Positions 19,298 to 53,816 of a DNA stretch of 64,000 nt are shown piece by piece (the first letter of the stretch is position 1; each line of letters opens with the position of its first letter). Source of the stretch: an uncultured Spirochaetia bacterium (GTDB lineage: Bacteria; Spirochaetota; Spirochaetia; JABEVK01); the NCBI GenBank assembly GCA_937960645.1, contig CALGPJ010000006.1:146868-210867 (forward strand), in the 5' to 3' direction. The notes beneath the pieces were generated by a model that was not told the origin of the DNA, did not search any database, and was given only the letters and a program-made list of their open reading frames with translations. The translations under genes and the position numbers were made by a program.

Positions 19298-22200
19298 CTA
19301 CCTTGTATACGTTCCGGATTCAAAGCTTGGGCTGGCATGGTGGCGGTACCCACCAGGTTGAATCTCCAGGGTCTCGAAGAGTTGCCAGCGCCACTGCTGC
19401 GGCCCGTTGGTGGCCCAATCGGCGGGCTTGTCACCAATCAGGGCCTTGTAGCGTGCGGGCACCGTGATGGCCCAGGTTACCCACCGCCAGTTGTTACTGT
19501 CGTTTTTGGCGAGTTTCACGAAGCCGTATTGCGTCTGATCCCAGGTGAGTGGAAAACCGGGTGCCACGGGCGGACCGGCAGGTGCGTCCCCCCCGCGGTA
19601 CCAGAGGGAATTGAAGCCCGTTGGAAAGGCACTGAAGTTGGAGGAAAACACGGTCTTGAAGGCCACCTCCTCGGCCACGGCGGAGTCCGACAGACCGCTT
19701 TTGAAGGCCCGGGCCTTGATCCTGTAGATATACCCACCGTCCAGATCCACCGTCCCAATGGTGATTTCCGTGGAATAAGGTGTTGAAGCTCCGGTGGGTG
19801 TCCCCGGATCAGCCGGAAGCGCGGGATTGTTCACGGTGGTCTTTCCGGAATTGCTGCTGGTGTAACGAATCGTGGCTCCCTCGGTTTCCGAGCTGATCTT
19901 CAGGGTGGTCGTGGTGGGTTGAGAATTTTCGCTCCCGCTCTGCTTTCGGATACGGATCACCGGAGTGGCAACCGGCCCAGTGGTGAAACGGTAAACCGCA
20001 CTGCTGGCGATACCGGCGTAGTTGTAACCCGCAGCATCCTTGAACGCGGTACCGTCGATGAGCACGTACCAGAGGACTCCTGGGGGAATCCCCGCAGACG
20101 GGGTGATGGTGATGGTCGCACTCCCCGCCCCCGTCACCTGAGCCGATTGAACATCGACCTCGATCTTGTTGTAACCCAAGGCATCAAAAATCGTCAAAAG
20201 GGAGGCGTTGTCGGGATCCAGGTTGTAGTTAAGCACCCAAAGGCCCTGGGTGTTGGGTACCCCGGCGACGGCCCCGTTGGTAGTGTAGGAGAACGAGTTG
20301 TCGAAGGTGGTCAAATTGGCACCACTCAACTGTCCCCGATATTCATCCCTCTGCACCTGGCTCATCAACACCGGGAATCTCTGGTGGACGCGGTGGAAGG
20401 TGATCTTGCCTGTGCCCTTGAACACGGGCTCACTGAAGGTCAGGTTCACCGAACTGCTGGTGACGTTCAACTGATTGTGGGTGGGATTGGTGGATATCAA
20501 GGTTGGGGCCACCGCGTCGATCACCAGGTTTTTGTTGTAGCCGAGGCTCTGTGGAGACCCGGGGTTGGCCAGGGTGAGGTTGGCGTTGTTGGAGAAGGCG
20601 TCCCGAATCGTTCCCCCGTTCAGATCGAGGGCGCCCGTGTTGGCATAGTCCAGATCGGCGCTGGCATCGTTGACCTGGACCACGTAGTGAAAGGTTAAGC
20701 TCGAGGTCCCGCTTCCACTCTGATAGTTAGCCGACCGAGCCGGACTGGTATTGAGGTTGAGCTTCGGTGCTCCGGTCACGGTTACGTTTTCGGAGAATTG
20801 CACGAGGATGACGATGGTGGAGCCGTGCGTGTGAATACCGTTGACCGTCGAACTGGTGACGTTGGTCACGACCGGTGCTGTCAGATCCAGGTTGAGGTTG
20901 ACGGCGGAACTTGCCGATCCCAGGTTACCGGCCTGATCGGTTTGCCGTGCCCGAACCGCGTACGCGCCATCCGTGTTCAGAGTTACGGGCCCTGTGTACG
21001 GCTGCCACGTGGTTCCCCCATTGACGGTGTATTCCAAGGAGGCTCCGAGCTCGCCGGATACAGTGAAGGTTTGCACGGTGTTGAAATTTCCGCCGCTGAT
21101 GCCACTCACCGTCGGGGCCGATGGGGGCGTGGTGTCGACCACCAGGGTAACGACGCCGGGAAGGCTGCTGGGACCGCTCGTCGGCTGGTTCAGGTTGGCG
21201 GTGTTGGTGGCGAGGTCGGTGATGGTCCCCGTTAAAGCGGTGGCCGAGTGGACATTCAGGGGATTGGCGTTGTCCCCGGCCTGCACGAGATAGGTAAAGG
21301 TGAGGACATTGGTTCCGGAGCCGAAAGCGTAGGTAGCGTTACGGACCGAGGCGCTGGTGTTCATCCGCAGCACCGGCGAGCCGGAGACGACCACAGGCTC
21401 GGAGAAAGTGACGGTAATACCGATGTTCTTGTTTTCGTTGTAGTGCCCGGGGGTGGTGCTGGAACTGACCGAGATAACCGTTGGAGCCACGGTGTCGATC
21501 ACGATGTTTTTGTTGTATCCCAGGCTGCCCGTCGAGGCCACCGCGGGAAGGGTCAGGGTGGCATTTAACCCGAGACTGTCCTTGATGGAGCCTCCGCTAA
21601 GCGATAGCGCCGTGGTGCTGGTGTAATCCAGGTCGGCTGTGTTGTGCCCGGATGCTACCGTGTACCGGAAGACCAGGATGTTGCTCCCGCTGCCGGACAG
21701 ATACGAGGCCGAACCGCCCGTATTCAGAGCGAGCGTGGGCGTGCCCGTCACGAAGGCCGACTTGGTGAACTGAACCGTGATATCGACGTTTTGCCCGGCT
21801 TTGTACGATCCGCTTGCGGTGAGGCTGTCCACGTTCGAAACGACAAAAGCCAGTCCATCGATCACGACGGTGACCGAGGCACTGACCGAAGACGTATTGC
21901 CTGCCACATCGGTCTGACGGCTCTGGATGATGTAGGTCCCGTTCGTGATCAGATTGACCATCACCGAGTACGCGTTCCAGGTACTTCCCCCGTCTAAGGT
22001 ATAGAAGGCACTGGCGCCCGGTTCGATACCGGTGAGAGTGAAACTCTGCGGCGTGTTGTAGTTTCCGCTGACCACACCGGTGATGGTTGGGGCCACAGGG
22101 GGAACCGCATCGACGACGATGGCCTTGTTGTGCCCCAGGCTGTTGGGTGCTCCGGGATTGGCCAGGGTCAAAACGGCGTCGTTTCCCGCCGGGTCTCGGA

Positions 22201-23299
22201 TGGTCCCGCCGTTGAGGTCCAGGGCCGTGGTGGAGGCATAGTCCAGATCGGGGCTGGCGTCACCGGCGGCCACCGTGTAGAGGAAGTTCAACGTGCTCGA
22301 GCCGCTGCCGTGGGTGTAGGTGGCGAATTTTCCGGCGATGTTGAGTTCCAGACGCGGGACACCCGTGACGAGGACGGGCTCGTTGAATTGGACCTGGATG
22401 GAGAGGGCCGAGCCGGTGCTGTACGAACCGTTGGCCGTCGAAGAATGAACGTTGTTTACCGAGGGTGGAACCGTGTCCACGTAAAAATTCTTGTTTGCCC
22501 CCAGGGAACCGCCCAGTCCTGGGCTGCCCAGACTGAGCACGGCGTCGGTGCCAGTGTTATCTTTGATGGTCCCCCCGTTGAGCTCCAGAGCTGTGGTGGA
22601 ATCGTAATCCAGCTCGGCGCTTTCGGGAGCGTTTTCTCCGGTCTGGATCAGGTAGTGGAAGACCAAAACATTGGTCCCGGAACCGGACACATATTGGGCA
22701 TAGACCGATGGCCCACTGTTGAGTTTGAGCCGGGGTGTGCCGGTCACCGTGGCCTGTTTGGTGAAGATCACGCGCAGGGGAAGGGTCTGTCCGGCCCGGT
22801 ACCAGCCGTTGTCCGCCAGGCTGGTCACCTCGACGACGCTCAAGCTGTTGTTGTCGGCAAGGAGAAATCGGCTTGCATGGTTCTTGTTGCCGGCCGCGTC
22901 GGTCACGATGACCCGAAAGTTCTGCGCTCCTGCGGCCGAAGCGAAGGCCGCCCCGAAGGCGGTGTTGAGGTTGACGGACCAGGAGGGCCCGGTGAAGTTT
23001 CCCAGGCTGAATTCCTGATTCTGTTCCATCCACCGAACGACGATGCTCGCTCCCTTGTTCGCCTGATTATCCGACCAGGTACCGCTCAAAAGGACGGGTT
23101 GAAGGGGATTGTTGGTCTTGAACGCCAGCCCGTCCTCGTTCGGCAATTGGATCGTGATCGCAGGGGGCAGGTAGTCCACCCCCTCCCCCAACCCTGGTGA
23201 GATCAGGTTCTCATCACAGGAAAAGAGCAGAAACACGAGAAAAACACGAATTAATAACGTTTCCAAAAAGGAAAATTGAAATTTTTTCAAATTGCCCAT
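19298..23299 (-). CDS. Giant surface lipoprotein with tandem Ig-like repeats (1333 aa)
   Basis: Lipobox …LLFSC; at least 5 copies of the same repeat module as in 16832..19288, two CHB_HEX_C-like modules, a Big_5-like segment and a distinct C-terminal domain of about 350 aa; 9-bp gap to the downstream paralogue. Confidence 0.6.
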   Translation of the reverse strand: MGNLKKFQFSFLETLLIRVFLVFLLFSCDENLISPGLGEGVDYLPPAITIQLPNEDGLAFKTNNPLQPVLLSGTWSDNQANKGASIVVRWMEQNQEFSLGNFTGPSWSVNLNTAFGAAFASAAGAQNFRVIVTDAAGNKNHASRFLLADNNSLSVVEVTSLADNGWYRAGQTLPLRVIFTKQATVTGTPRLKLNSGPSVYAQYVSGSGTNVLVFHYLIQTGENAPESAELDYDSTTALELNGGTIKDNTGTDAVLSLGSPGLGGSLGANKNFYVDTVPPSVNNVHSSTANGSYSTGSALSIQVQFNEPVLVTGVPRLELNIAGKFATYTHGSGSSTLNFLYTVAAGDASPDLDYASTTALDLNGGTIRDPAGNDAVLTLANPGAPNSLGHNKAIVVDAVPPVAPTITGVVSGNYNTPQSFTLTGIEPGASAFYTLDGGSTWNAYSVMVNLITNGTYIIQSRQTDVAGNTSSVSASVTVVIDGLAFVVSNVDSLTASGSYKAGQNVDITVQFTKSAFVTGTPTLALNTGGSASYLSGSGSNILVFRYTVASGHNTADLDYTSTTALSLSGGSIKDSLGLNATLTLPAVASTGSLGYNKNIVIDTVAPTVISVSSSTTPGHYNENKNIGITVTFSEPVVVSGSPVLRMNTSASVRNATYAFGSGTNVLTFTYLVQAGDNANPLNVHSATALTGTITDLATNTANLNQPTSGPSSLPGVVTLVVDTTPPSAPTVSGISGGNFNTVQTFTVSGELGASLEYTVNGGTTWQPYTGPVTLNTDGAYAVRARQTDQAGNLGSASSAVNLNLDLTAPVVTNVTSSTVNGIHTHGSTIVILVQFSENVTVTGAPKLNLNTSPARSANYQSGSGTSSLTFHYVVQVNDASADLDYANTGALDLNGGTIRDAFSNNANLTLANPGSPQSLGYNKNLVIDAVAPTLISTNPTHNQLNVTSSSVNLTFSEPVFKGTGKITFHRVHQRFPVLMSQVQRDEYRGQLSGANLTTFDNSFSYTTNGAVAGVPNTQGLWVLNYNLDPDNASLLTIFDALGYNKIEVDVQSAQVTGAGSATITITPSAGIPPGVLWYVLIDGTAFKDAAGYNYAGIASSAVYRFTTGPVATPVIRIRKQSGSENSQPTTTTLKISSETEGATIRYTSSNSGKTTVNNPALPADPGTPTGASTPYSTEITIGTVDLDGGYIYRIKARAFKSGLSDSAVAEEVAFKTVFSSNFSAFPTGFNSLWYRGGDAPAGPPVAPGFPLTWDQTQYGFVKLAKNDSNNWRWVTWAITVPARYKALIGDKPADWATNGPQQWRWQLFETLEIQPGGYRHHASPSFESGTYTR

Positions 23300-29143: not shown

Positions 29144-30483
29144 AGGACCTGTACGTCGACACCGAGGAGCCGATCTGCGCCATCGCCACCCCCCTGGCGC
29201 CGAGCGCCTTGGGGATCGTGCGGTTCTGCGGAAAAAACTCCCTCCAGTTGTTTTCCCAGGTGTTCAGCCGTCCCCAGGCCCTGCGGAACACGCCGCACCG
29301 GGGAGCCTGCCACGGCAGCATCCGAGACCAAACGGGTGCGGATGTGGATGACGTCGTCGTTCTGGTCTGGCGGGAGGGGGGCGGGTACACCGGCCAGGAG
29401 GGCGGGGACATCATGGCCCACGGCAACCCGACCATCCTCCTCGGTATCGTGGAAGTCCTGACGCGTTCGGGATTTCGGAGCGCGGGGCCCGGGGAATTCA
29501 CCCTGAGGGCCTTTCTGAACGGCAAATTGGACCTGACCCAGGCCGAGGCCGTCGATTCCCTGATCAAGGCCCGTACAACTCGGGCCGCCGGGCTGGCCCT
29601 GAAGCGGCTTCATGGGGGAATCCGCAGGGAAATCGAGGAAGCTAAACAGGCCATCCTCGATCAGCTGGCTCAGGTCAACATCCAGCTCGATTATGCGGAA
29701 GACGACGTCGAGACCATGAAGCTGGACCGGGTCAGGCTACGTGCCGTCCTGGAAAGGCTGGAATCCCTCGTGGCCACCTCCCGACGCGGCAGCCTCTACC
29801 AGGAAGGGCTTCGGGTGGCTTTGGTCGGTCCGGTGAATGCCGGAAAAAGTTCTCTGTTCAACCGATTCCTCCAGGAGGAAAGGAGCATCGTCAGCGAGGA
29901 AGCCGGAACCACCCGAGACTTCCTCGAGGGGTGGATCAGCCTCGAAGGAATCCCCCTGAAACTTTTTGACACTGCGGGACTGCGGGAAACCGACAACCGG
30001 GTCGAACACGAGGGGATCCGCCGAAGCCGCGACCTGGCTGCCGCTGCCGACCTGGTGCTCTTTGTATGGGACGGTCTGCGGGGCCTCCCCAAAACCGAGG
30101 AGAGCTTCGAAAAACCCACGATCAAGGTCTGGAACAAGGTGGATGTGGCTCCCGAGGTACCCGAAACCTGGATCGGCGTCTCGGCCAAAAACGGACTGGG
30201 CTGGAGGGATTTGATCGACGCCCTCAAAACGAAGTTGAAGGAGCTGGAGGGTGGAGGGGCTCAGGGGGACCTATCCCTGGACAGCCAGCGCCAGGCCGAA
30301 CTCCTGTCCCGTGCCGCCCGGTCTCTGCACGACGCCCTCGACGCCGAGGACCTCGACCTGCCCCACGACATGATCGCCCTGGACCTTCAGGACGCCCTGG
30401 ATGCCCTGGGGGAGATTACAGGAGAAGTAACCACCGCCGATGTGCTGAACCGCATGTTCGGAAGTTTCTGCGTGGGGAAGTGA
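29140..30483 (+). CDS. mnmE: tRNA modification GTPase MnmE
   Basis: G1-G4 motifs (GPVNAGKSSLFN, DTAG, NKVD) and C-terminal …FCVGK; the start overlaps the HAD stop (ATGA). Confidence 0.9.
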   Translation: MKDLYVDTEEPICAIATPLAPSALGIVRFCGKNSLQLFSQVFSRPQALRNTPHRGACHGSIRDQTGADVDDVVVLVWREGGGYTGQEGGDIMAHGNPTILLGIVEVLTRSGFRSAGPGEFTLRAFLNGKLDLTQAEAVDSLIKARTTRAAGLALKRLHGGIRREIEEAKQAILDQLAQVNIQLDYAEDDVETMKLDRVRLRAVLERLESLVATSRRGSLYQEGLRVALVGPVNAGKSSLFNRFLQEERSIVSEEAGTTRDFLEGWISLEGIPLKLFDTAGLRETDNRVEHEGIRRSRDLAAAADLVLFVWDGLRGLPKTEESFEKPTIKVWNKVDVAPEVPETWIGVSAKNGLGWRDLIDALKTKLKELEGGGAQGDLSLDSQRQAELLSRAARSLHDALDAEDLDLPHDMIALDLQDALDALGEITGEVTTADVLNRMFGSFCVGK

Positions 30484-30975
30484 TCAGGCCTGAGGCAAAT
30501 CGGGCAATCCGTTTTGATGCCCCTGCCAATGGTGGAAAAAATAGCTCTCTACCACGGAGGCCTTGTAGGGGCGGCCCTGAAAGGTGTGGCGGCAGCCCAT
30601 GTAGGCCCCGCACTCGTACGGTTTGACCGCGTGGATGGTACACAGCCCTTGTTCGGAAAGGAAAACACAGGTACCCTTTTCCGTATCGTGGTAATCCCGG
30701 GCACGGTGCCCCGGCAGGGTCACGTAGCGAAAACGGGTTTTGAATTTCGCGGGAGCGGGTACCCAGATACTGCTTCCCTTGTGTTGGAGCCTCTTCAAAA
30801 TCAGGTAGTCCCGCCACAGCTGCTCGACGTTGATTTTCAGAAAATCGGCCAGACGCTCCACCTCCCCGGGCAGGAAACGCCCCGGGTCCGTGCGGCAAGC
30901 CGAGGTACAGGCGTCACAGGAACAGGATTCCATGAGGGCACTCCCAAACTCAGTAGGAAAAACGTTCAAACACAA
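30484..30975 (-). CDS. YkgJ/UPF0153-family Cys-cluster (putative Fe-S or Zn chelating) protein
   Basis: ESCSCDACTSAC… plus CVFLSEQGLCTIHAVKPYEC; the start may be the internal MESCSC (30933), since the 5' end overlaps the upstream gene. Confidence 0.55.
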   Translation of the reverse strand: MCLNVFPTEFGSALMESCSCDACTSACRTDPGRFLPGEVERLADFLKINVEQLWRDYLILKRLQHKGSSIWVPAPAKFKTRFRYVTLPGHRARDYHDTEKGTCVFLSEQGLCTIHAVKPYECGAYMGCRHTFQGRPYKASVVESYFFHHWQGHQNGLPDLPQA

Positions 30976-32287
30976 TCCGCGCGGGACGGACCCCCTGGCG
31001 CAATAGTTCCTTTACCAGAGATTCCATCTGGGCAACAGGCCCACAGAGATAGTACATGCTGGGGCGGGAGATGTCCACCAGATCCGAGAGAACCTTTGGG
31101 GTCAACCGAGCCCTCCTCGCTTCGGGGTGATCTTCCCTGCTGAGAAGCAGGGTGTAGGAAAACCGCTTCTCCCCGGAGGCCAGTTTCTTGAGCTCATCGT
31201 GGGCAAAGGCGTCTTCGAACCGCGACGTGTTCCATATCAGCTGAATGTCCCGATCGAAGCCGTCCCGCAAGGACCGCAACATGCTCAGAAAGGGGGTGAT
31301 GCCGATCCCCCCGGCCAAAAAAACGACCGGCAGCCCCGGAGGGGAGCGCCGAAGAGTGAACAAACCGTACGGGCCATCGATCGTTGCTCGGGATCCAACA
31401 GCAAGTTCCCCAAGACGGGCCGTGAACACGCCGGACTTTTTGGCCGTGATCGTCAACGGGGCTCCCGGTGCGGAGGCAAGGGTGAAGGGGTGCTCCTCGG
31501 AGGGAAATCCTTTTTGCTGGAAGGACACGTAGACGAACTGACCTGCCCGAAAATCGAAATGCGCGGGAGCTTGTAGCGTCACACTGACCACGGCGGGCGA
31601 TTCCTCTCGGACCGCAGAAACGGTCCACGGCCGAGCGCGAAGGAAAAGCCCCTTGATCAGGCGGTGGTAAAGGTAAAAGCCAAACCCGACGACGAACCAC
31701 CCCAGCATGTAACCCATCCGCAACTCGTTTTCGGAGGTGGAACTTGCTAACAAGACATGAATCACGGCGAGAATCCCCGCCACGCTCACCAGGTTATGCA
31801 CCAGCCTGAGGGTATTGTACCGAAGTCGAAGTTTATGTGCGGTCCACCGCCTCAGCTCGACCAGGGGGGACCAGCGCGCCAGGATGACAGGACTCATCAA
31901 CAGGGCGCTGAGGACGATGATGGTATTGAACATCGCCCCTGCCCCCATTCCCAAAAAAACCTGAAGGTTGAGCTCATAGGTGCTCAGGTTTTTGCTGATG
32001 ACGTGCCCCCCAATGCCCAGCAAAATCACCAGGCCCAGGAAACCATGGAAACGGATGACCTTGTCCTGGCCAAAGGCGCGATCGAGCAATTTGATGCGGG
32101 ATCCCAGAAAAAACTGGGTGACGACAGCGGAAAATACCAGGATGCCAAAGATCATCCCGAGGCTCCACGTATGCGCCAATGTCTCCCAACCAAAGAAGGG
32201 GCCCCAGGGCTCGAAATATAGCAGGAAGGCGCCGATGGGAAGGCTGATGAAAAACAGGATGATCGACAATCGGAACAACAGGGTCAT
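30950..32287 (-). CDS. NOX/FRE-family flavocytochrome (ferric-reductase bis-haem TM domain plus FAD- and NAD(P)H-binding domains)
   Basis: Two His pairs spaced about 13 residues apart in TM helices (HGFLGLVILLGIGGH; HNLVSVAGILAVIH); FAD motif HPFTLAS; NADPH motifs GGIGITPF and CGP. Confidence 0.7.
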   Translation of the reverse strand: MTLLFRLSIILFFISLPIGAFLLYFEPWGPFFGWETLAHTWSLGMIFGILVFSAVVTQFFLGSRIKLLDRAFGQDKVIRFHGFLGLVILLGIGGHVISKNLSTYELNLQVFLGMGAGAMFNTIIVLSALLMSPVILARWSPLVELRRWTAHKLRLRYNTLRLVHNLVSVAGILAVIHVLLASSTSENELRMGYMLGWFVVGFGFYLYHRLIKGLFLRARPWTVSAVREESPAVVSVTLQAPAHFDFRAGQFVYVSFQQKGFPSEEHPFTLASAPGAPLTITAKKSGVFTARLGELAVGSRATIDGPYGLFTLRRSPPGLPVVFLAGGIGITPFLSMLRSLRDGFDRDIQLIWNTSRFEDAFAHDELKKLASGEKRFSYTLLLSREDHPEARRARLTPKVLSDLVDISRPSMYYLCGPVAQMESLVKELLRQGVRPARIVFERFSY

Positions 32288-32766
32288 AAGAGTTTTTTGA
32301 TGCGCTCGACGTATTCCTGAGCCAGCCGGCGAACGGCGCCCATGTCCGAGGCCGAGGTTACACTGTCCACCTTGACCGGCGGGGTCCACACCGTTGTTTG
32401 GGTGGTGTGCAGGATGATGTTTTGATCAAAATCCTTGACACGATTCAAAAACTGTAGGACCCAGGGGCGTACCTGGGCCGTTGCCCCGCTGTTGGAGATG
32501 AAGACAGCCTTGAACTGCCGCGGATCGATGTCATTCAGCCCGTTACGCGAATGATTCACGATGAGAATGTAGGTCTGACCATCGTTGAGAAGCCGAATCA
32601 TTTCCTGAATCAGGGCGTCTTTGAAACGCGTGGGTTCGGTTGCCAGGAGCACTTTTCGCTCCGACGTCTTGGGTCCCAATTCCTGCAGGAAGCCCGGTTG
32701 ATTGGCGTTAAGGTGAACGACACTTGCGAGGAAGAAAATCCCCGATAAAATGATTTTGGTTATCAT
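32284..32766 (-). CDS. Small secreted protein, unknown function; first gene of the NOX-like operon
   Basis: Signal peptide MITKIILSGIFFLASVVHLNA|NQ; the stop overlaps the NOX start (ATGA). Confidence 0.35.
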   Translation of the reverse strand: MITKIILSGIFFLASVVHLNANQPGFLQELGPKTSERKVLLATEPTRFKDALIQEMIRLLNDGQTYILIVNHSRNGLNDIDPRQFKAVFISNSGATAQVRPWVLQFLNRVKDFDQNIILHTTQTTVWTPPVKVDSVTSASDMGAVRRLAQEYVERIKKLL

Positions 32767-32820: not shown

Positions 32821-33753
32821 ATGGCTGATCTCCCCTTGAATTTCGTTGCCCTGGATTTCGAGACCGCCAACCGCCACCCCAACAGTGCCTGCGCATTGGG
32901 CCTGGTCACGGTCGCGGATGGCCAGCTCGTCGACGAGGTCAGTTTTCTCATTCGCCCCGAACCCCTGGTGTTCGAATCGGGCAATATTCGGGTGCATGGT
33001 ATCACGCCCGAAAAGGTACGCAGCATGCCCACCTGGGACCAGCTTTGGCCCACTATCCTTCCCTACCTCGATAGCAAAATCTGGGTGGCCCACAATGCCG
33101 GTTTCGACATGAAAGTGTTAGGTTCGAGTCTTCGGGCCCACGCCCTTCCCATCCCAAGGGGCCGTTTTTTTTGTTCCTGGCGCCTCGCTAAAAAGGTTTT
33201 TCCGGGCCTTTCGAGCTACAGCCTGGGGGCCCTGGCCGCGCACTTTGATTGGGAGCTTCAGCACCACGACGCCCTCAGCGACGCCCGGGTCTGCGCCTTT
33301 CTTTGCCTGGAAGCATTCCAAAAGGCGGAAATCACGAACCTTGCCCAGTTCCAGGCTTTGGGTCTCAAACTTCAGACCTTTAGCCTGGATACGATCGCCT
33401 CGCAGACGGCAAGTCTCCAGACCCTCGAGGTCCGTTTCGATACCATCGTAGAGGATGAGAGCCTGAACTCCCGCACCGTGGTATTCTCTGGGGACCTCGT
33501 TCATTTTACCCGCGACGATGCCGAGTACCGAGCCTGGCAATCGGGGGCCAGGGTCGTCACTCGGGTGGACGAGGGCGTCGATTACCTCGTCGTGGGTCAA
33601 AAACACGGCGGGTATCCCATCCTGACGCCCAAGCTCCAAGCCGCTTTGCGATTGAAACAGGAGGGCAGCTCTCTGAAAATCATCGACGAAAAATGTTTTC
33701 GGGATCTGGTAAATCGCTCGTCCTGGGATATGATGGTAAAGGTTACCGAGTGA
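32821..33753 (+). CDS. DnaQ-like DEDDh 3'-5' exonuclease fused to a C-terminal BRCT domain
   Basis: Exo motifs ALDFETAN, WVAHNAGFDMKVL, HDALSDAR; BRCT-like VVFSGDL…DYLVVGQ. Confidence 0.7.
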   Translation: MADLPLNFVALDFETANRHPNSACALGLVTVADGQLVDEVSFLIRPEPLVFESGNIRVHGITPEKVRSMPTWDQLWPTILPYLDSKIWVAHNAGFDMKVLGSSLRAHALPIPRGRFFCSWRLAKKVFPGLSSYSLGALAAHFDWELQHHDALSDARVCAFLCLEAFQKAEITNLAQFQALGLKLQTFSLDTIASQTASLQTLEVRFDTIVEDESLNSRTVVFSGDLVHFTRDDAEYRAWQSGARVVTRVDEGVDYLVVGQKHGGYPILTPKLQAALRLKQEGSSLKIIDEKCFRDLVNRSSWDMMVKVTE

Positions 33754-33776
33754 ATAAATCCTGTCGGGGAGGTCTC

Positions 33777-34805
33777 ATGAAGAGTTTTTGGATTGGAGTG
33801 ATCGTGGTATTTTTGGGATCGAGTCTCATAGCCCAGGAACCTCAAATCACCGACACGCTGACCATTCAGGGTTTTTATGCCCTGGATAACAACGAGGGCT
33901 GGGGCCAGACCGGAGGCTTCATCCCGCTCTCCTATTCCCCTGTTCTCAAAGACACCGGCTCGCTCACTGCCCCGGACACGGGCAGAAATCTTGGATCGGG
34001 CTGGGGAGGTGTGGGTCTCGAGGCGGTGTTGACCCGCAACATCCGTTTTCCCTTCCTGACCGGTGAGGGAGCCCTCGTTCAGGGGAACAACATCACGTAC
34101 AACCTTCGTGCCGGTCTGGCCCCGGTGGCCCTTCGCCTGGAAGCCGAAGCCGTTCTGACTCCCATCGCCTTCCTTCAGTTCGGTCTCGGTGCTCAGCTCG
34201 GTACCGGCTGGGACCTTGTGGTCTTCAACGGCCTGGGGCTCAACACCAACCCCACCGGCGAAATCGAGAAGACGCCCTTTGGCGGTGCGGTTGTTCGAGT
34301 GTGGGCATTCGGCGTCTTTCAATTCGATTTGGCGGCCCTGATCCCCGGCGAGTGGAATCACGTGGTCGTGCTCAGCCGCGGAAGTCTGGCCTACCAGCAC
34401 TTCACACGGGCAGGCTCCAACGAGGCCTGGCAATGGGCAGCCGACGAGGGTAAAAACTTTAACGGACCGAAGCTTGTCAGCGTTCACTTTCTGGGGTATC
34501 AGATGCCCCTGGTGCTCAACACCCTGGGTCTTCTGTTGGAAACGGAGGTTTACCTCGATCCCATTTTCAGCCTCAGCAGATGGAATGATGGGGGTTGGGG
34601 CAGCGACTTTTTAAGCCTCAGACCCAGCTTCCTCACCAATTGGACTCTGGCAGAAAACCAGAGCCTGGCCGTGCTGGTCAGCTTCAGCAATTTCATCGAC
34701 TATTCCGACGCCACCATCTTCAATCGTTATTACCTGCACCGAAGTGCCGAGGCTGTCGGATGGAAGTGGGACAAAATCAATTTTCAATGGAACATGAAGT
34801 TTTAG
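33777..34805 (+). CDS. Putative outer-membrane beta-barrel protein
   Basis: Signal peptide; alternating amphipathic beta-strand pattern; C-terminal …QWNMKF with a terminal Phe. Confidence 0.4.
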   Translation: MKSFWIGVIVVFLGSSLIAQEPQITDTLTIQGFYALDNNEGWGQTGGFIPLSYSPVLKDTGSLTAPDTGRNLGSGWGGVGLEAVLTRNIRFPFLTGEGALVQGNNITYNLRAGLAPVALRLEAEAVLTPIAFLQFGLGAQLGTGWDLVVFNGLGLNTNPTGEIEKTPFGGAVVRVWAFGVFQFDLAALIPGEWNHVVVLSRGSLAYQHFTRAGSNEAWQWAADEGKNFNGPKLVSVHFLGYQMPLVLNTLGLLLETEVYLDPIFSLSRWNDGGWGSDFLSLRPSFLTNWTLAENQSLAVLVSFSNFIDYSDATIFNRYYLHRSAEAVGWKWDKINFQWNMKF

Positions 34806-35516: not shown

Positions 35517-35963
35517 ATGGATGATTCTCTATTTTCGATCGAGGGGCTTTCCCTCGAGGCCGCGCAGCAACACATTTTGACGATTCTCACCGAACTCAAA
35601 CTCCGGGAGAAGGAACTCAAGAACCTTCTCGAACAGGAAAATACCTGGTCACAAAGGCTCGAATTGGCGCAGAAGCACAACAGGGATGATCTGATCCAGG
35701 CAGCACAAACCGAATTGACCCAAATTGCTGAAAAAAAGCACCGCGTGCGGCAGGAGCTTCAGGAGTTTCAACTTGGAATGGAAAGGCTCAAAAGCCAGAT
35801 GAACCGCCTGCCCGGGGAACTTTCCCTTCAGTCATCCGACCAGCTGATCGCAGAACTGTCCCTGCTCGTGGGCGAGGAACCCAAACCAGATGACTCGGCA
35901 TTCGATGAACTGGAAGCCCAGCAGGCACTCGAGAAGATGAAATCCGAAAACCAAGGTCAGTGA
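35517..35963 (+). CDS. Coiled-coil protein (weak PspA/IM30-like C-terminal resemblance)
   Basis: Heptad-rich, acidic C-terminus …DDSAFDELEAQQALEKMK. Confidence 0.3.
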   Translation: MDDSLFSIEGLSLEAAQQHILTILTELKLREKELKNLLEQENTWSQRLELAQKHNRDDLIQAAQTELTQIAEKKHRVRQELQEFQLGMERLKSQMNRLPGELSLQSSDQLIAELSLLVGEEPKPDDSAFDELEAQQALEKMKSENQGQ

Positions 35964-38413
35964 ATGTCGAGATCGATCTCGGTGATTTCGCCGCTGTAAC
36001 CCAGAACCCCCAGTTGTCCCACGGATCTCCAGGCCAGTGCGGTGATCGGCTCATCGAGCCGCACCACCCGGGACAGGAGCCGAAGGTCGGGAAGCATCCA
36101 GGCCTTGACCTCTCCGTCCCGGCCCGCAGAAATCAGATACCGGCCCTGCGGATCGGCCACACAGGCCGCCACCCCTTGGGCATGAGCCTTGACCTCCCAA
36201 TGACCACTCGATCCCGGCACACCCCAGGCCTGAATCTCGGGTGAGCCGTCCCAACCCACCAGAATCCGACCGCAGGATAACAGCCCTTTCAAGGGGGAAC
36301 CACCGGTTTTGAGAATTTCCAGGGCTCGGAGATGATCCCAATCCCACACCAGAAGGCGGCCGTCCTCCCCCGTGGAGGCGACGAAGGTTGTGGAATCACA
36401 GGCCGGGTATCGAGTCTGCCGAGGCAATACGACTAGATGCTGTACCGCCTTGAGGTGCTGATAGGACAATGGGGCAAGATCGTTTTCGAAAAGTCGATAC
36501 ATCGATCCCTTGGCGCTTCCCAGGGCAAAGTCATCTCCCACCTGAAGTGCTGCCGTAATCCAGTCTTCGGGGTCCAGAAGGTTCCACCCCTTACCCGCCT
36601 GATCTTCCAACCGGCCCTGCCGGGCAAAGTAAGGCTTCCCATTCAGGAGATAAAATCCCTGGGTCCCCGAGACGGTCGTGCGCCCCCCCGGAAAAAGGTA
36701 TTCCCCACTGAGGCTCAGGAGGTGCAACCCGCCGCCCACCATGCCCTGAGAAAGCCAGGGATCACCAAACCCCAGGATTTCAGGATTTTTGGGTCCCTGG
36801 GCCCAACTCAGACCGAGGCGGTGCCACCCATCTCCCCAATAAAGTCGCAGTGCTCCTTTTTGACCGTAAATGTCTCGAAGTTTCAGGGCACCGAAATCCC
36901 AGACCGAAACCTGCCCATCCAAACTGGAAACGTACAGATTTCCGTTCGATTTATCGTAAGCAAAATCCGTGACCCAGTCGGTGTGGTGACGCATAACACG
37001 CTCCCGAACCTTGCCGGACAAGTCGATAACCCGAAAACTCCAATCCTGAGATCCGACAAGGAGTTTGTTCGACACCCAGGAGAGAGCGGTAGGTTGTATT
37101 CCTTCCCACTTTCGGACCTGCGTGTCCTGGTCGTAGACGATCAGGGCACCTTGAACCACCCAGGCACTCATTCGCTTCGGCCCCAGGGCGCCTTTTTCCG
37201 GCTGGGCGGAGAGGTGAATCGTCCATTCATGTCCGACTTCATCCCTGAAAAACACGGAGTTTCCCGACACCTGGGCCAGGCTACTCTTGCCTGTCAGGAC
37301 CCAGTCCCCCCCGGATCCCCTTTTGAACACTTGCCCTTCAGGCTCCCGGATTTCCCAAATCCCCTTGGGATTCCAGGTCCAAAACGACCCGTTCCAGAAA
37401 ACCAAACCTTGAAGAGGGGCCGAGTCCACCCGTTGTGTCCCCTTGAAAAACCCGTCTTCGTCCACCCAGCCAAGATCACGCCCCCAGGCAAGACCGGTCA
37501 CGGGACGTCGGCTCAGAATCTTTTCCATTCCCGAAGGTTTGACGATATCGATCCGATGACGTTTTTCATCTCCGACCAGGGCCAATGTCTCTTTTTCTTC
37601 CGACCAGGCGTGGTGGCGAACCAGTTGGGCATGGTGGCGTCTGTCCGGTTTAAACTCCACTCGATGGTCGCAGGTCAACCAGCCCAGGGTCTGCCGCCCC
37701 AAAAAGAGAGCCTTGATCCCCCCGCGACCGTAAGGATTATCGTTGATCTTACACATCGGGGCCCTGAAATGGATCGAACGATGGGCAGCCTCGTCCTCGA
37801 AGGCAGGCCCGATGGATTCGAGAATCTGTGTGAATTGCCGTTCCTTTTCTTTACCCCACCAGGCACGAGCTTTTTGCCTCTCGTCGCGATTGAGGGTGGT
37901 CCAAACAAGAGCCAGGTCCTCCACAGCCCCCTTTTTGCCGGCAAGAGACCGGACAAAGGTGATGAGAGACCCATCCGGATCGTAAATCCAGGTCGATTCC
38001 AGGGCGGCTTCGAAAAGCACCTTGTGAACTGAAAAATATTCACTGTCGCAGAAGGTTTGAAGTGCGTGGCGTAAATGGGGGCTTTGGGGAGGTGGCAGCT
38101 TTTCCAACAGCGCCAGATTTCTGAGCGCCCGGATTCGGATACGATCGAGCCACTCGCTGCGCGCAACCGCCAACTCGTAAGCCACCCAATTCCAATCCTG
38201 GAGAGCCTTTTGGGATTCGCCCTGGTTAAAGGAAACCACGCCCCGGTTGACTCGAGCACGAAGAACCTGAAACAGGTCGTTTTCCGACAGGTCAAGCGAC
38301 TCGTGGGAGATTACCTCTGTGTACAAGGTTAAAGCCAGATCGGTATCGCCGTCGCGGCTGGCTGCCCGAGCTTTTTCAATGAGATCTTCGAATCGAGGTT
38401 GCGACATGGACAT
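35957..38413 (-). CDS. Large TPR (N-terminal) plus WD40-like beta-propeller (C-terminal) protein
   Basis: N-terminal TPR-like helices; C-terminal repeated …DG.V.VWD/…W motifs (LDGQVSVWDF, EDGRLLVWDW, RDGEVKAWML). Confidence 0.5.
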   Translation of the reverse strand: MSMSQPRFEDLIEKARAASRDGDTDLALTLYTEVISHESLDLSENDLFQVLRARVNRGVVSFNQGESQKALQDWNWVAYELAVARSEWLDRIRIRALRNLALLEKLPPPQSPHLRHALQTFCDSEYFSVHKVLFEAALESTWIYDPDGSLITFVRSLAGKKGAVEDLALVWTTLNRDERQKARAWWGKEKERQFTQILESIGPAFEDEAAHRSIHFRAPMCKINDNPYGRGGIKALFLGRQTLGWLTCDHRVEFKPDRRHHAQLVRHHAWSEEKETLALVGDEKRHRIDIVKPSGMEKILSRRPVTGLAWGRDLGWVDEDGFFKGTQRVDSAPLQGLVFWNGSFWTWNPKGIWEIREPEGQVFKRGSGGDWVLTGKSSLAQVSGNSVFFRDEVGHEWTIHLSAQPEKGALGPKRMSAWVVQGALIVYDQDTQVRKWEGIQPTALSWVSNKLLVGSQDWSFRVIDLSGKVRERVMRHHTDWVTDFAYDKSNGNLYVSSLDGQVSVWDFGALKLRDIYGQKGALRLYWGDGWHRLGLSWAQGPKNPEILGFGDPWLSQGMVGGGLHLLSLSGEYLFPGGRTTVSGTQGFYLLNGKPYFARQGRLEDQAGKGWNLLDPEDWITAALQVGDDFALGSAKGSMYRLFENDLAPLSYQHLKAVQHLVVLPRQTRYPACDSTTFVASTGEDGRLLVWDWDHLRALEILKTGGSPLKGLLSCGRILVGWDGSPEIQAWGVPGSSGHWEVKAHAQGVAACVADPQGRYLISAGRDGEVKAWMLPDLRLLSRVVRLDEPITALAWRSVGQLGVLGYSGEITEIDLDIH

Positions 38414-41434: not shown

Positions 41435-42550
41435 GTGTCACGTCGAGACTCCCTCTTGTTTTTCTTGTTTCTCGCGGGCCTTGTATTTGCCCAGACGTCC
41501 GGACCCACACAAAAAATCGGTTTAGCCTTCGCTTCAGGCGGTCGTGGTGATCGTTGTGACAACGATCTTGCGTATGAGGGGCTGATAGAAATCGCCAAAA
41601 ACTTCAATGGTTACTTCACCACATCCGCGGATCCCAGGCATGGCGGAGAATTGGAGATCAAATACCTGACCCCCTCCCAGGATACACCCCAGGAAAGACT
41701 CCGAGTGTTGCGCCAACTCGGACAGGAAGGGTATCGACTTGTCTTCGCGGTGGGCTTTCTCTTTAGCGACGTCTTGCCTGTGGCCGCACAAGAGTATCCC
41801 AACACTCATTTCGTATTGATCGACGGTTACCTGGCCGGTGTTCAACCGCAGGACAACATCACCGTTGTGGATTTCAGGGTGCACGAGGGCTCCTTCCTGG
41901 CCGGTATGATTGCGGGATTGAAAACCGAAGGGAACAAGGTTGGCTTTATCGGAGGAATGAACACAGAACGTATTCAAAGGTACGAGTCCGGATTTCGAGC
42001 CGGCGCCGTTTATGCCAATCCCATGCTCAAGAGACCAGGTCAATTTCTTGTGGAGTACATCGGGGACGATCCCCGTGCGTTCAACAACCCCAACCGTGCC
42101 TACCGAATCGCACAGCGGATGTATCGTGCGGGTGCCGGTGTCGTTTTCCATGTTGCAGGGGCGTCGGGAATGGGGGTTTTCCGGGCAGCCAAGGAGTCGC
42201 AGCGGTGGGCCATCGGTTCGGGTTCTGACCAGGGTGCGGTGCTTGCCTTCGACAGGAATCCACAAATCCTGGAACAGGCCAGGTGGGTCTTGACCTCCAT
42301 GCTCAAGCGTATCGATCGCTCTATATTTTTAATGACGAGAGATTTCCTCCTCAAAGGTAGAATAGCGGATCGTTACCATATTCTTGGCTTTAATGCTGAT
42401 TCCGTCGGTTTTGCTGTTAACCAACTGAACAAAGATCTATTGGGACAGGCGCTCATTCAACAAATCATCAATACACGAATCAGGATCATGGATCAAGAAA
42501 TCATCGTTCCCGCCAACTATCGGGAACTGGAACAATTTTTAAGGAATTAA
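41435..42550 (+). CDS. BMP-family (PnrA/TmpC-like) ABC substrate-binding protein
   Basis: KIGLAFASGG…GFLFSDVL…GFIGGM… pattern of basic membrane proteins; SPase-I-type signal peptide. Confidence 0.75.
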   Translation: MSRRDSLLFFLFLAGLVFAQTSGPTQKIGLAFASGGRGDRCDNDLAYEGLIEIAKNFNGYFTTSADPRHGGELEIKYLTPSQDTPQERLRVLRQLGQEGYRLVFAVGFLFSDVLPVAAQEYPNTHFVLIDGYLAGVQPQDNITVVDFRVHEGSFLAGMIAGLKTEGNKVGFIGGMNTERIQRYESGFRAGAVYANPMLKRPGQFLVEYIGDDPRAFNNPNRAYRIAQRMYRAGAGVVFHVAGASGMGVFRAAKESQRWAIGSGSDQGAVLAFDRNPQILEQARWVLTSMLKRIDRSIFLMTRDFLLKGRIADRYHILGFNADSVGFAVNQLNKDLLGQALIQQIINTRIRIMDQEIIVPANYRELEQFLRN

Positions 42551-42560
42551 AGGAATTGAT

Positions 42561-44414
42561 ATGAAAATCGGCCCTAAACTTATTTTGACACTTTTTATCG
42601 TAATCACCCTGGGAAGTGTCGCACAGGTGGCCTACCGATTCATCGTGGACCGCAACCAATTGGAACTCGAGTTGCAGACTCAGGCCGATAACGCAATGAA
42701 AAGAATCCTGAACGGTTTGGCCCAGCCAATCTGGAACTTCGATACCTCCATGATCGAAACCATCATGAGGCTGGAATTAGCCGATTTTAATCTTCAGGCC
42801 ATCCAGATGACCAACAGTCTCGGAAAACTCACGCATTTTTTGGGGCGCCGAAAAAACAACATCCAGGTTCAAGATTTGGTCCTTGCGGATCCCTCGGTCC
42901 GACAGGGGATCATCGACAGCGCCTATCTCACCCTCACCGAGAAATTGGAATACGATGGCTATTTTCTTGGCAACGTCACCCTCTATTACACCAACGAAAT
43001 TATCAACCGGAAGACCTGGAATCAGGCATTTTCTTTGATTTTTCAATCTCTGGTGGTGGCATTGGTCCTGATGCTCGTCCTTTGGTATGCATTGCAGAAG
43101 ATCATCGTCGAGCCTATCGTGGAGCTGACCACCGTGGTACTCAAAATATTCAAAAACGGCGATCTTTCCATTCGTTCCCCTATTCGATCTAAAGATGAAA
43201 TCGGAATTCTTTCCAAGCAGTACAATAAAATGTTGGAAATCATCGAAGAACATACCAAAAACCTGGAAAACAAGGTCTCGGAGAGGACCCGAGATCTGGC
43301 AGCGGCCAATACAGTGCTCAAACAACAAAAAGACGAGATCGATCGAAACCTTCAGATGGCCCAAAAAATCCAGCTCAACCTCATTCCCAACGAAAAAACC
43401 TATCCCACTCGCCAGGAACTGCACTTCAACGGCCTTTACAAGGCCATGGACGCTATCGGCGGGGATATTTTCGATGTCATCCGTTGCGGAAGAAACTCCT
43501 ACGGCATTTTGATGGCCGACGTATCGGGACATGGAATACCCGCGGCCCTCGTCACGGCCATGGCCAAGGTAAGTTTCAACACCCACGCCCAACAGTACGG
43601 CATCCGCACCTCGGAAGTTTGCTCTCGAGTCAACAAGGATATTACCCAACTTCTAGGCAATGATTTCAGTCACTATCTCACGGCCTTTTTTGGAATCATC
43701 GATTTGGAGAAGAGGACCTTCAACTACACCAACTGTGGTCACCACCCCGCCCTTCTGATCCGAAACGAGACAATTCTCTCGTTGGGAAGTCCCGGGCCCT
43801 TCATTGGTTTCATTGAAAACGCCACATTCTACGACGAGTCGATCGAGCTCCAGGAAGAGGATCGATTGATCCTTTTCACGGACGGCATCGTAGAAGCGAA
43901 GAACGAAAAAGGTGATTTGTACGACACTCCCCGCCTGATCAATCTTTGCCGAACCCATGCCAAAAGCTCGTCCAAAGAACTCATTCAGGCTGTGCTCAAC
44001 GATCTGAAAAGTTTTTGTGGAGAGATGGAAGCTGACGATGATCGGGCTGTTCTCATCGTGGACTATTTGCGAGATCAGACCAGTAAAGAGCAGGAGCTGG
44101 ATTTCCAGGGAGGCAAAATTTTCAAATCAGAAAAGAAAGAGATCAAGGTCCACCTCCAGGAGGCGGTCCTCCTGGCACGCCAGGGCCACCTTCCCGAAGC
44201 GCTCAACCTCCTCGAGGAACTTTACGAGTCCCATCCCTCGAATGTGAAGGTCGTCATCAACCTGAGTCTGGTACTGTACAAAACCGGCAACTCCGAGAGA
44301 GCTCTCTCGATTCTCAAAAAGGCGTACGATGAGAACAAGGACAGCGCCGTTAAGGAGTTTATGGAGCGGCTTGAAGCGAGAATTCAGAGCGGAAACGTCA
44401 ATTACGTCGATTGA
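42561..44414 (+). CDS. Membrane sensor with HAMP domain, PP2C/SpoIIE-type phosphatase domain and C-terminal TPR
   Basis: TM – periplasmic region – TM – HAMP (IVEPIVELTTVV…) – SpoIIE motifs (GGDIFDV, ADVSGHG, FTDGIVEA) – TPR. Confidence 0.8.
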   Translation: MKIGPKLILTLFIVITLGSVAQVAYRFIVDRNQLELELQTQADNAMKRILNGLAQPIWNFDTSMIETIMRLELADFNLQAIQMTNSLGKLTHFLGRRKNNIQVQDLVLADPSVRQGIIDSAYLTLTEKLEYDGYFLGNVTLYYTNEIINRKTWNQAFSLIFQSLVVALVLMLVLWYALQKIIVEPIVELTTVVLKIFKNGDLSIRSPIRSKDEIGILSKQYNKMLEIIEEHTKNLENKVSERTRDLAAANTVLKQQKDEIDRNLQMAQKIQLNLIPNEKTYPTRQELHFNGLYKAMDAIGGDIFDVIRCGRNSYGILMADVSGHGIPAALVTAMAKVSFNTHAQQYGIRTSEVCSRVNKDITQLLGNDFSHYLTAFFGIIDLEKRTFNYTNCGHHPALLIRNETILSLGSPGPFIGFIENATFYDESIELQEEDRLILFTDGIVEAKNEKGDLYDTPRLINLCRTHAKSSSKELIQAVLNDLKSFCGEMEADDDRAVLIVDYLRDQTSKEQELDFQGGKIFKSEKKEIKVHLQEAVLLARQGHLPEALNLLEELYESHPSNVKVVINLSLVLYKTGNSERALSILKKAYDENKDSAVKEFMERLEARIQSGNVNYVD

Positions 44415-52757: not shown

Positions 52758-53816
52758 ATGCTAGCCGCCATCACGAATGGGTGGTATAGTATCTTTAGGG
52801 TGAAAGCGTTCGTTGTCGGATTTTTCCTACTATCGTTGAACTCCCATGCACAGATACTTCGACTGGAGTGGGATCTACTGTCTTTGCCGTTATTGAACCT
52901 GTACATTTATCAAACCTCGCCCGAAGGAAACGTCAAAAGGATACCCACCACAATGGGATCGACACCTACCCTGGGATTTTACGAGGTGTCTCTAACCCGA
53001 GAAGATGGCCGTTACCAGGTATTTGTCGTCAATCCCTCGGTCGACGATGACTTTGCCGATTGGTCCGCCTACCGATGGTTGGAGTATGTCAAACTCACCC
53101 TCCAACGAAACAACGTGAAAATCGAAATCACCCCCAAGCCCAACAATGGGGGTGTGTGGCATGCAATCGACCTGTTGGGACAGGAGCTCGAACCCGTCAT
53201 CGTCAACCAAATTTTACCGCGACGGCTGATGGTCTGGGGGCAGGTTTTTTCCGCCGACACAGCTACTCCCCTTCCCCAGGTTCTTGTTCGGGCACAATCC
53301 AACCAACAAAGTCTCATCCGCGATGTGACGAATCGCCGGGGACTATTCCTGCTGTTTCTCAACGAGGATCAATATCAACTGACCTTCGAGGGCAACCGCC
53401 TGGTCCCCCGAGACGCTTTTGTGGACTTAAAAACCAATCCGTTTCCCCACAGAATCGACACCACCCTATCGGCGGCAGGTAACGACAGCACTCAGGTCAT
53501 CGTGCTGACCTGGGACCTTTATCCCGAAGATCTCAACATGGAGCTGCAGAGCGACGAGACGACGATCCGGGCCTCTTCACCCAACCCCGACTGGGCATTC
53601 AAAAAATTGGTCTTCACCCCGGAAAGCTCGAAAACCTACCGTCTGGTGGTCAACCCAGACAAAGTTTCCGACGAGCTATTATTTGCCTACTCACAGGCCC
53701 GTGTCACGATTCACAACGGTTCTCGGATTATCACACGTCAGATGCCCCTGGGTAATCGTTCCGAGTGGGCGGTTCTCAATTACCAGCCTGAACTGGGTTG
53801 GGTCGAAACGGAATAA
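52758..53816 (+). CDS. Secreted hypothetical protein
   Basis: N-terminal signal/TM segment; no recognisable domain; the start was reassigned to MLAAITNG. Confidence 0.35.
   Translation: MLAAITNGWYSIFRVKAFVVGFFLLSLNSHAQILRLEWDLLSLPLLNLYIYQTSPEGNVKRIPTTMGSTPTLGFYEVSLTREDGRYQVFVVNPSVDDDFADWSAYRWLEYVKLTLQRNNVKIEITPKPNNGGVWHAIDLLGQELEPVIVNQILPRRLMVWGQVFSADTATPLPQVLVRAQSNQQSLIRDVTNRRGLFLLFLNEDQYQLTFEGNRLVPRDAFVDLKTNPFPHRIDTTLSAAGNDSTQVIVLTWDLYPEDLNMELQSDETTIRASSPNPDWAFKKLVFTPESSKTYRLVVNPDKVSDELLFAYSQARVTIHNGSRIITRQMPLGNRSEWAVLNYQPELGWVETE

Follow-up and report, generated by a model that had tools for sequence, protein, structure and literature searches.

Bacterial homologues of the NADPH oxidases (NOX) form a large family (Hajjar 2017, PMC5676040), and the role and electron acceptor of its members have been raised as an explicit question. 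In SpNOX, the NOX homologue of Streptococcus pneumoniae, the outer haem is unusually exposed and cytochrome c is reduced directly (Dubach 2024, PMC11564096). Ferric reduction by the enzyme is too slow to be meaningful and O2 may not be the physiological acceptor; its authors suspect 'a potential protein acceptor', without putting forward a candidate (PMC11564096). We describe here a two-gene unit, A and B, in a 64000-nucleotide stretch of DNA (the window) from an uncultured Spirochaetia bacterium (GenBank assembly GCA_937960645.1, contig CALGPJ010000006.1, positions 146868 to 210867 of the forward strand). An SpNOX-type flavocytochrome, B, is translationally coupled in this unit to a small exported protein, A. 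The conservation and coupling of A single it out as a specific candidate for the protein to which bacterial NOX enzymes naturally deliver electrons.

Several known systems resemble this arrangement in part. MsrQ-like/NAD-binding proteins cluster with flavinylated partners (Meheust 2021, PMC8238504). The architecture of B is already known, as is the scheme in which a dihaem ferric-reductase-domain protein with an NAD-binding domain feeds an extracytosolic flavoprotein, the latter by genomic inference in Actinobacteria. Exported flavodoxin-fold proteins are demonstrated substrates of ApbE, the flavin adenine dinucleotide (FAD):protein flavin mononucleotide (FMN) transferase, and work with membrane cytochromes (Huang 2024, PMC11334425). 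Spirochaetes have a periplasmic Ftp that attaches flavin to a soluble lipoprotein from another locus and that also sustains the pool of FMN in the periplasm; judging by locus numbers, Ftp of Treponema pallidum (TP0796) is encoded apart from its substrate TP0171 (PMC4436053). New in the present case are the partner family, which has neither a name nor a Pfam entry, the near-obligatory way in which it is paired with an SpNOX-type enzyme in spirochaetes, and a non-canonical flavinylation-like motif.

Read directly from the sequence, three co-directional open reading frames (ORFs) on the minus strand fill positions 30484-32766, as the preliminary description of this DNA had stated. Gene A (32284-32766) encodes a 160-residue exported protein with a predicted flavodoxin fold and no Pfam match. 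Gene B (30950-32287) encodes a 445-residue flavocytochrome of SpNOX type, in which a bis-haem domain of six transmembrane (TM) helices is joined to a dehydrogenase domain for FAD and reduced nicotinamide adenine dinucleotide (phosphate), NAD(P)H. Gene C (30484-30933) encodes a 149-residue cytoplasmic protein of Pfam family PF03692 (CxxCxxCC, YkgJ-type). The stop codon of A and the start codon of B overlap in the sequence ATGA (32284-32287), an arrangement typical of translational coupling.

The haem domain of B occupies approximately residues 1-210 (31658-32287, minus strand) according to hydropathy and alignment to SpNOX. The predicted haem ligands are H81 (32045-32047), H95 (32003-32005), H164 (31796-31798) and H177 (31757-31759). 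They form two pairs, H81-x13-H95 and H164-x12-H177, within the hydrophobic segments 80-98 and 162-180, and in a profile alignment they match H69, H83, H129 and H142 of SpNOX (numbering of PMC11564096). H81, H95 and H177 are invariant in an alignment of 33 sequences, 90% or more of which also have H164. In the dehydrogenase part, the FAD-binding motif HPFT (residues 266-269; 31481-31492) is near-invariant among homologues and the NAD(P)H-binding motif GGIGITPF (residues 326-333; 31289-31312) is invariant or near-invariant. The CGP motif (residues 415-417; 31037-31045), which also aligns with SpNOX, has C415 and G416 invariant and P417 at least 90% conserved in the same 33 sequences. Close to the C-terminus the invariant F443 aligns with F397 of SpNOX. 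Five TM helices pass the hydropathy threshold and a sixth (residues ~193-210) is backed by the SpNOX alignment; the outer loops are predicted to be at most 17 residues long, as in SpNOX.

SpNOX is the closest solved structure to B by sequence (phmmer against 8qt6, E = 7e-24), and a profile of B and 32 homologues matches SpNOX residues 36-397 over positions 46-444 with E = 4e-64. The filters for bacterial NOX proteins set out by Hajjar 2017 (PMC5676040) comprise the FAD motif H[PSA]F[TS][LIMV], an NAD(P)H motif, two His-X12/14-His pairs at least 20 residues apart in TM3 and TM5, and a C-terminal dehydrogenase domain preceded by 3-7 predicted TM helices. B passes all of the sequence filters, with HPFTL at 266-270, GIGITP at 327-332, both histidine pairs and the order of TM and dehydrogenase domains. 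Pfam scans place FAD_binding_8 and NAD_binding_1 above their cut-offs; Ferric_reduct (PF01794) reaches 19.1 bits, under its gathering threshold of 28, and NAD_binding_6 likewise falls below. Because several homologues of B carry PF01794 in precomputed annotation, and because the profile aligns with the TM domain of SpNOX, the shortfall in Ferric_reduct reflects divergence and not absence of the domain. On its sequence, then, B is a complete bis-haem flavocytochrome of NOX type.

Both enzymes are single polypeptides of ~400-445 residues with six TM helices, equally spaced histidine pairs in TM3 and TM5, the HPFT-type, G-x-G-x-T-P and CGP motifs, a C-terminal phenylalanine and short outer loops (PDB 8QQ7, 8QT6; PMC5676040, PMC11564096). 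B differs in an extra stretch of ~22 residues that separates TM4 from TM5 on the cytosolic side, in its origin from a diderm spirochaete and in its genetic pairing with an exported partner, whereas none is described for SpNOX. The histidine pairs, the three motifs and the full NOX architecture had been noted in the preliminary description, and all of these hold, as does FAD_binding_8 among the domain matches that it proposed as a check, whereas Ferric_reduct and NAD_binding_6 fell short. Its view that bacterial proteins with the full architecture are uncommon was overstated: 389 matches at E <= 1e-10 were obtained among 8000 candidates scored, 230 plasmid records carry homologues and the family had been described in 2017.

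Gene A begins with a hydrophobic, signal-like segment (residues 1-19). A signal peptide of residues 1-21 (32704-32766, minus strand) is predicted, with cleavage after A21 at L-N-A/N, and A21 is invariant among relatives. In 46 of the 177 members of the family, about a quarter, a lipobox-like cysteine replaces the signal-peptidase I site. A is thus presumably extracytosolic and, since it has no twin-arginine motif, presumably exported by the Sec route; a reading of A as a flavoprotein exported pre-folded by the twin-arginine system was dropped on the same ground. That a small exported protein precedes B had been seen earlier; the flavodoxin fold and the flavinylation-like motif of this protein had not.

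An exhaustive profile search for the A family gave 573 clusters with a cut-off of E <= 1e-3 and 176 with one of E <= 1e-10; almost all are of 150-180 residues. Pfam and NCBIfam scans of A returned no usable match, and the family profile run against PDB sequences gave noise only (E > 0.4). The AlphaFold2 (AF2) model of A, with a predicted local distance difference test score (pLDDT) of 80.6, is a five-strand β/α sandwich, which we assign to the flavodoxin-like fold with five parallel strands. Some family members also match the Pfam family Flavodoxin_5 weakly (11 of 34), only protein P0200 exceeding the cut-off (31.9 against 27), and these matches start past the phosphate loop. The conserved residues of A are E44, T46 and K49; N92, S93 and G94; T121, T122 and W127; and D134 to S140. 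In the model they lie in the loops after strands 1, 3, 4 and 5 at the C-terminal edge of the sheet, where they would form the usual ligand crown of flavodoxin-fold proteins. K49, D134 and S140 are conserved throughout the family and are placed at helix N-termini. A has no cysteine or histidine ligands. Assignments to the SGNH hydrolases, the TIR domains and the CheY-like proteins were considered and dropped, as the GDS/DxxH signature, the catalytic glutamate and the phospho-aspartate, respectively, are not conserved.

The hallmark of the family, and its best-conserved motif, is D134-S-V-T-S-A-S140 (32347-32367, minus strand), located between strand 5 and the C-terminal helix as assigned by DSSP. 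The pattern D..[ST].A[ST] is found in 165 of 177 family members, with TSAS in 93, SSAS in 30 and glycine at position 5 in only six. It agrees with the ApbE motif D-x-x-[S/T]-G-A-[S/T] (PMC12052999) at six of seven positions, the difference being serine in place of glycine. Replacement of this glycine by alanine in one tested ApbE substrate retained ~50% flavinylation (PMC12052999). We infer that A carries a flavin, which may be attached covalently at Ser140. Flavinylation of A at T-S-A-S would mean that the ApbE motif as now accepted is too restrictive, and that genome surveys depending on this motif or on co-localization with apbE undercount such systems.

Linkage of the two genes was probed from both sides, using homologues of B (30-70% identity) and, for A, one GTDB-wide and one metagenome scan. 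Starting from B, A adjoins B in six of seven lineages; it precedes B in five of them and follows it in one (retrieved locus L005), and in the seventh (L006) A starts 4.9 kb downstream. Starting from A, B lies immediately downstream in 10 of 10 loci from the metagenome scan and in seven of the nine from genomes. When near-identical loci are collapsed, 23 distinct lineages of B remain; A directly adjoins B in 21 of these and lies 4.4-4.9 kb downstream in the other two. This adjacency bears out the tight coupling of B to the upstream exported protein that had been proposed from the window. The lineages span 40-64% GC and include several spirochaete genera and one Chitinispirillaceae metagenome-assembled genome (MAG). 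Overlaps, or gaps of at most 9 nucleotides, separate A and B in the relatives L001, L002, L003, L024 and L025. The exceptions (L006, L014 and L015) are of Alkalispirochaeta type and share a common insertion of 4-5 kb between B and A, which carries genes for an aminotransferase, a 178-residue protein, a zinc-dependent alcohol dehydrogenase and formate-tetrahydrofolate ligase (FTHFS), together with an M48 peptidase in L014 (L006 6412-11401; L014 3-5737; L015 1630-5900).

Gene C behaves differently. Its homologues occur in only two lineages besides the window, L001 and the L003/L004/L028-30 lineage; of the 22 distinct lineages with A and B besides that of the window, 20 lack it. In both of the lineages that have C the whole neighbourhood is syntenic with the window, so that its retention reflects relatedness; in the L003/L028 lineage a gene for an ankyrin protein on the opposite strand stands between B and C. 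All-against-all clustering of ORFs across the loci revealed no recurrent third gene beyond A and B; the other groupings trace to close relatives that share synteny, to the Alkalispirochaeta insert and to scattered genes for ankyrin proteins. Since the linkage of A and B is wide and C is confined to the closest relatives, the conserved module is A plus B, and C is a lineage-specific neighbour. Of the three-gene unit proposed in the preliminary description, the A-B part is therefore upheld by synteny and C, which is not conserved with it in other genomes, falls away.

C itself is much as it had been described. Its N-terminus reads MESCSCDACTSAC, with the cysteine pattern CxCxxCxxxC, and four further cysteines bring the total to eight. 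The match to PF03692 (28.3 bits, E = 2.8e-6) passes the gathering threshold of 23. C resembles the YkgJ/PF03692 family (UPF0153, which includes the flagellin methylase FliB) in its N-terminal cysteine cluster and its C-terminal C..FL....C.I...(K/R)P..C pattern; the spacing of the N-terminal cluster is CxCxxCxxxC in C and CxxCxxCC in the family. The match to the NCBIfam FliB model is weak and local (16.9 bits against 85). The overlap of B and C that had been suggested requires C to start at the TTG codon at 30975. The N-termini of C homologues align instead to the ATG at 30933, which is preceded by GGGAG in a 16-nucleotide spacer (30934-30949, minus strand) past the stop codon of B, and this alignment indicates ATG 30933 as the most likely start. 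C is possibly co-transcribed with A and B in this organism while standing outside the conserved module.

The position next to B is filled by other small proteins in other clades. On Streptomyces and Microbacterium plasmids the homologue of B is followed by a 146-residue 'FMN-binding protein' and then by ApbE (L040 2800-5492, Streptomyces NZ_CP107895.1; L041 1904-5479, Microbacterium NZ_CP120714.1); the partner has the motif DAVSGAT 19 residues from its C-terminus, and the Microbacterium cluster also has a VIT family iron transporter. A more distant NOX-like protein, P0050, 29% identical to B, is directly preceded by a 115-residue exported protein with a CGVCH (CxxCH, haem-c type) sequence and a Pfam Temptin_C domain (L026/L027; CGVCH-protein gene 3646-3993, P0050 gene 4001-5281). 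Homologues of B on Rhodobacterales plasmids (L038 and L039) have no small partner. The actinobacterial clusters and the neighbour of P0050 support a redox role for the slot beside B.

The actinobacterial clusters belong to the MsrQ-like systems (PMC8238504; NZ_CP107895, NZ_CP120714), and the A-B pair resembles them in three respects. A dihaem protein of Ferric_reduct type is fused to an NAD-binding domain, an adjacent small extracytosolic protein carries D-x-x-[ST]-x-A-[ST] ~20 residues from the C-terminus, and the proposed flow is from NAD(P)H to a flavoprotein outside. The homologues of B in these systems are 28-29% identical to it over more than 90% of the length. They have an FMN_bind partner with the canonical S-G-A-T and an apbE gene, often with VIT1, in the cluster, whereas A is flavodoxin-like, has T-S-A-S and no linked apbE, and its hosts belong to the spirochaetes and Fibrobacterota, not to the Actinobacteria. 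The ApbE-flavinylated Flavodoxin_4 and FMN_red proteins (Huang 2024, PMC11334425) are, like A, extracytosolic, of flavodoxin fold and partnered with a dihaem membrane cytochrome. Their flavinylation sites differ from the putative one of A, being an insertion between strand 1 and helix 1 in Flavodoxin_4 and the C-terminal tail in FMN_red. Unlike A, these proteins also keep the canonical flavin site, co-localize with apbE and partner DUF4405 and not a NOX-like protein; A matches neither Pfam family. In E. coli MsrPQ a cytochrome of the ferric reductase superfamily with an exposed outer haem likewise feeds a soluble periplasmic protein (PMC11564096), but MsrQ lacks the dehydrogenase domain of B and takes its electrons from quinol or Fre, and MsrP is a molybdoenzyme unrelated to A.

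We propose that electrons pass from NAD(P)H through FAD and two haems to A, probably a flavoprotein, in the periplasm and from there to a further acceptor. The electron source of B would be cytoplasmic NAD(P)H, and B has every component of a path from there to an outer haem. Electrons would cross the inner membrane by way of FAD and then a stacked pair of b-type haems, and the outer haem, lying under short loops, would pass them to A. A would be a small Sec-exported periplasmic protein of flavodoxin fold, lipid-anchored in some relatives, and most likely an FMN carrier. The FMN may be bound non-covalently, or covalently on Ser140 after placement by a periplasmic ApbE/Ftp encoded elsewhere in the genome. 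Reduced A might then pass electrons on to an acceptor such as O2, Fe(III), an enzyme of the periplasm or, for regeneration of NAD+, an extracellular sink. This path is suggested by the properties of SpNOX, the pairing of A with B, the partners found in Actinobacteria and beside P0050, and the literature on ApbE. The preliminary description had suggested a transmembrane electron-transfer module with three possible functions; the evidence favours one of these, the donation of electrons to a periplasmic partner, with C left out of the module. We put the probability of the route through A at about one half.

A number of observations weigh against this route. Serine instead of glycine at motif position 5 in nearly all family members is atypical for ApbE substrates. 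Neither the window nor the ~35 fetched loci yielded an apbE when probed by tblastn and phmmer with the ApbE sequences of E. coli and Streptomyces, and PF02424 is absent from the neighbour lists. Pfam scans of 28 ORFs of the window likewise contained no ApbE, the whole window being covered by the tblastn probes only. The match of A to the flavodoxin fold is generic, a TIR domain scoring as high as flavodoxin, and A of the window itself matches none of the flavodoxin families in Pfam. In flavodoxins the FMN phosphate loop after strand 1 has the sequence T/S-x-T-G-x-T; A has A-T-E-P-T-R-F-K at this point, with no glycine, and this canonical loop is absent. Distant members of the family in candidate division TA06 have no NOX-like neighbour and lie beside genes of ankyrin and ferredoxin type. 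Finally, the divergence of A and B is incongruent across sub-clades (Spearman 0.13), and the overall co-divergence (Pearson 0.70, Mantel 0 of 2000) is not taken as evidence.

Several of these points also fit the main rival, a model in which B acts alone, as an oxidase or ferric reductase that delivers electrons at its exposed outer haem to O2, giving superoxide, or to Fe(III), and A is a non-redox accessory, for example a cap, stabilizer, assembly factor or regulator comparable to p22phox, DUOXA or EROS. SpNOX reduces O2 in vitro without a partner (PMC5676040, PMC11564096), the Rhodobacterales homologues have none, and an accessory role would suit a protein with a generic fold match, neither cysteine or histidine ligands nor the canonical FMN loop, no Pfam match and no apbE linked to its pair with B. 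We nevertheless judge this model rather unlikely, if a serious contender. The equivalent slot elsewhere holds predicted redox-cofactor proteins (FMN-binding with ApbE, or CxxCH), the conserved residues of A form a crown resembling a ligand site that includes the ApbE-like motif, members of the A family match Flavodoxin_5, and the authors of the SpNOX work question both O2 and iron as physiological acceptors (PMC11564096). In another model A is a periplasmic enzyme or ligand-binding protein whose Asp/Ser/Lys site would take up no flavin but a small molecule, phosphate-containing or otherwise, with B-dependent reduction or transport of this molecule. The placement of K49, D134 and S140 at helix N-termini is typical of anion or phosphate sites, motif position 5 is almost never glycine and stand-alone family members without B exist. 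Against this, A showed no detectable similarity to any enzyme family, and the parallel with redox partners in other clades would be left unexplained; we consider such a role improbable.

The remaining alternative, that A, B and C form a three-component module with C as a cytoplasmic metal-cluster partner of B, is the one put forward in the preliminary description. It draws on the position of C, which follows B after 16 nucleotides in the same orientation and has a GGGAG of its own, on the same arrangement in L001 and on the standing of C as a bona fide member of PF03692. The synteny set out above largely refutes it, since C is lacking in most A-B lineages, is divided from B by the ankyrin gene in one that has it and is kept only amid full synteny. 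Moreover, B needs no cytoplasmic metal-cluster donor because it has an NAD(P)H and FAD domain of its own. We regard this possibility as very remote.

Should the route through A be correct, it extends the scheme of a membrane cytochrome with an extracytosolic flavoprotein, represented so far by the ApbE-linked FMN_bind, DUF2271, DUF3570, Flavodoxin_4 and FMN_red proteins, to a widespread unnamed family. A bolder and, taken as a whole, unlikely extension is that the A family constitutes a new class of periplasmic flavodoxin that acquires covalent FMN at D-x-x-T-S-A-S after Sec export and acts as the physiological acceptor of the SpNOX-type enzymes of spirochaetes. In that case many of the bacterial 'NADPH oxidases' would in reality use NAD(P)H to reduce periplasmic proteins, through small partners of flavodoxin-like, FMN_bind or cytochrome-c-like type that can replace one another, and reducing power would be exported by a quinone-independent route. 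Fermentative spirochaetes may lack a respiratory chain based on quinones. If they do, the A-B module would give them a direct conduit for electrons from NAD(P)H to the periplasm.

Some further observations concern the loci of the A family. Genes for ankyrin-repeat proteins recur beside A-family genes (L003 7960-8403; L017 5603-6889; L020/L021, at 1438-2730 in L021; L007 9138-10049). In TA06 such a gene lies directly downstream of the stand-alone A-family gene and is followed by a gene with a 4Fe-4S ferredoxin domain. The recurrence could be a coincidence arising from repeat similarity. One locus, L008 (DYOB01000024.1), is titled 'Borreliella garinii', but the contig has 50.5% GC and comes from a sulfidic-cave MAG. 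Borreliella is AT-rich, and the organism name looks wrong.

Scans for regulatory signals around the three genes of the window were uninformative: the sole minus-strand promoter-like site ahead of A overlaps the start codon of this gene, and sites resembling terminators are no commoner than in shuffled sequence. At the other end of the three genes, mnmE (plus strand, ending at 30483) and C (minus strand, ending at 30484) converge so closely that their stop codons abut as the palindrome TGATCA (30481-30486), leaving zero intergenic room for terminators.

The G+C content of the window is 0.57-0.63 over ~16-32 kb, compared with 0.47-0.54 in most of the remainder, and is 0.567 in genes A, B and C. 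The block of high G+C includes, besides A, B and C, the genes for two very large proteins with Ig-like and CHB_HEX_C domains (16832-19288 and 19298-23299, minus strand). Sizeable ORFs with no Pfam match occur at 33693-34805 (plus), 35957-38413 (minus), 53776-54870 (minus), 1752-3152 (plus) and 3149-5191 (minus). The first of these encodes a 370-residue protein with a signal-like N-terminus, and the product of 53776-54870 has a lipoprotein-like N-terminus (LLLACS). In the closest relatives the synteny around A and B extends to the 370-residue protein and to an 818-residue WD40-like protein. At 41435-44414 on the plus strand, a gene for a Bmp/PnrA-like substrate-binding lipoprotein is followed not by genes for an ATP-binding cassette (ABC) transporter but by one for a HAMP-SpoIIE(PP2C)-TPR membrane protein, which suggests that the two form a ligand-sensing pair.

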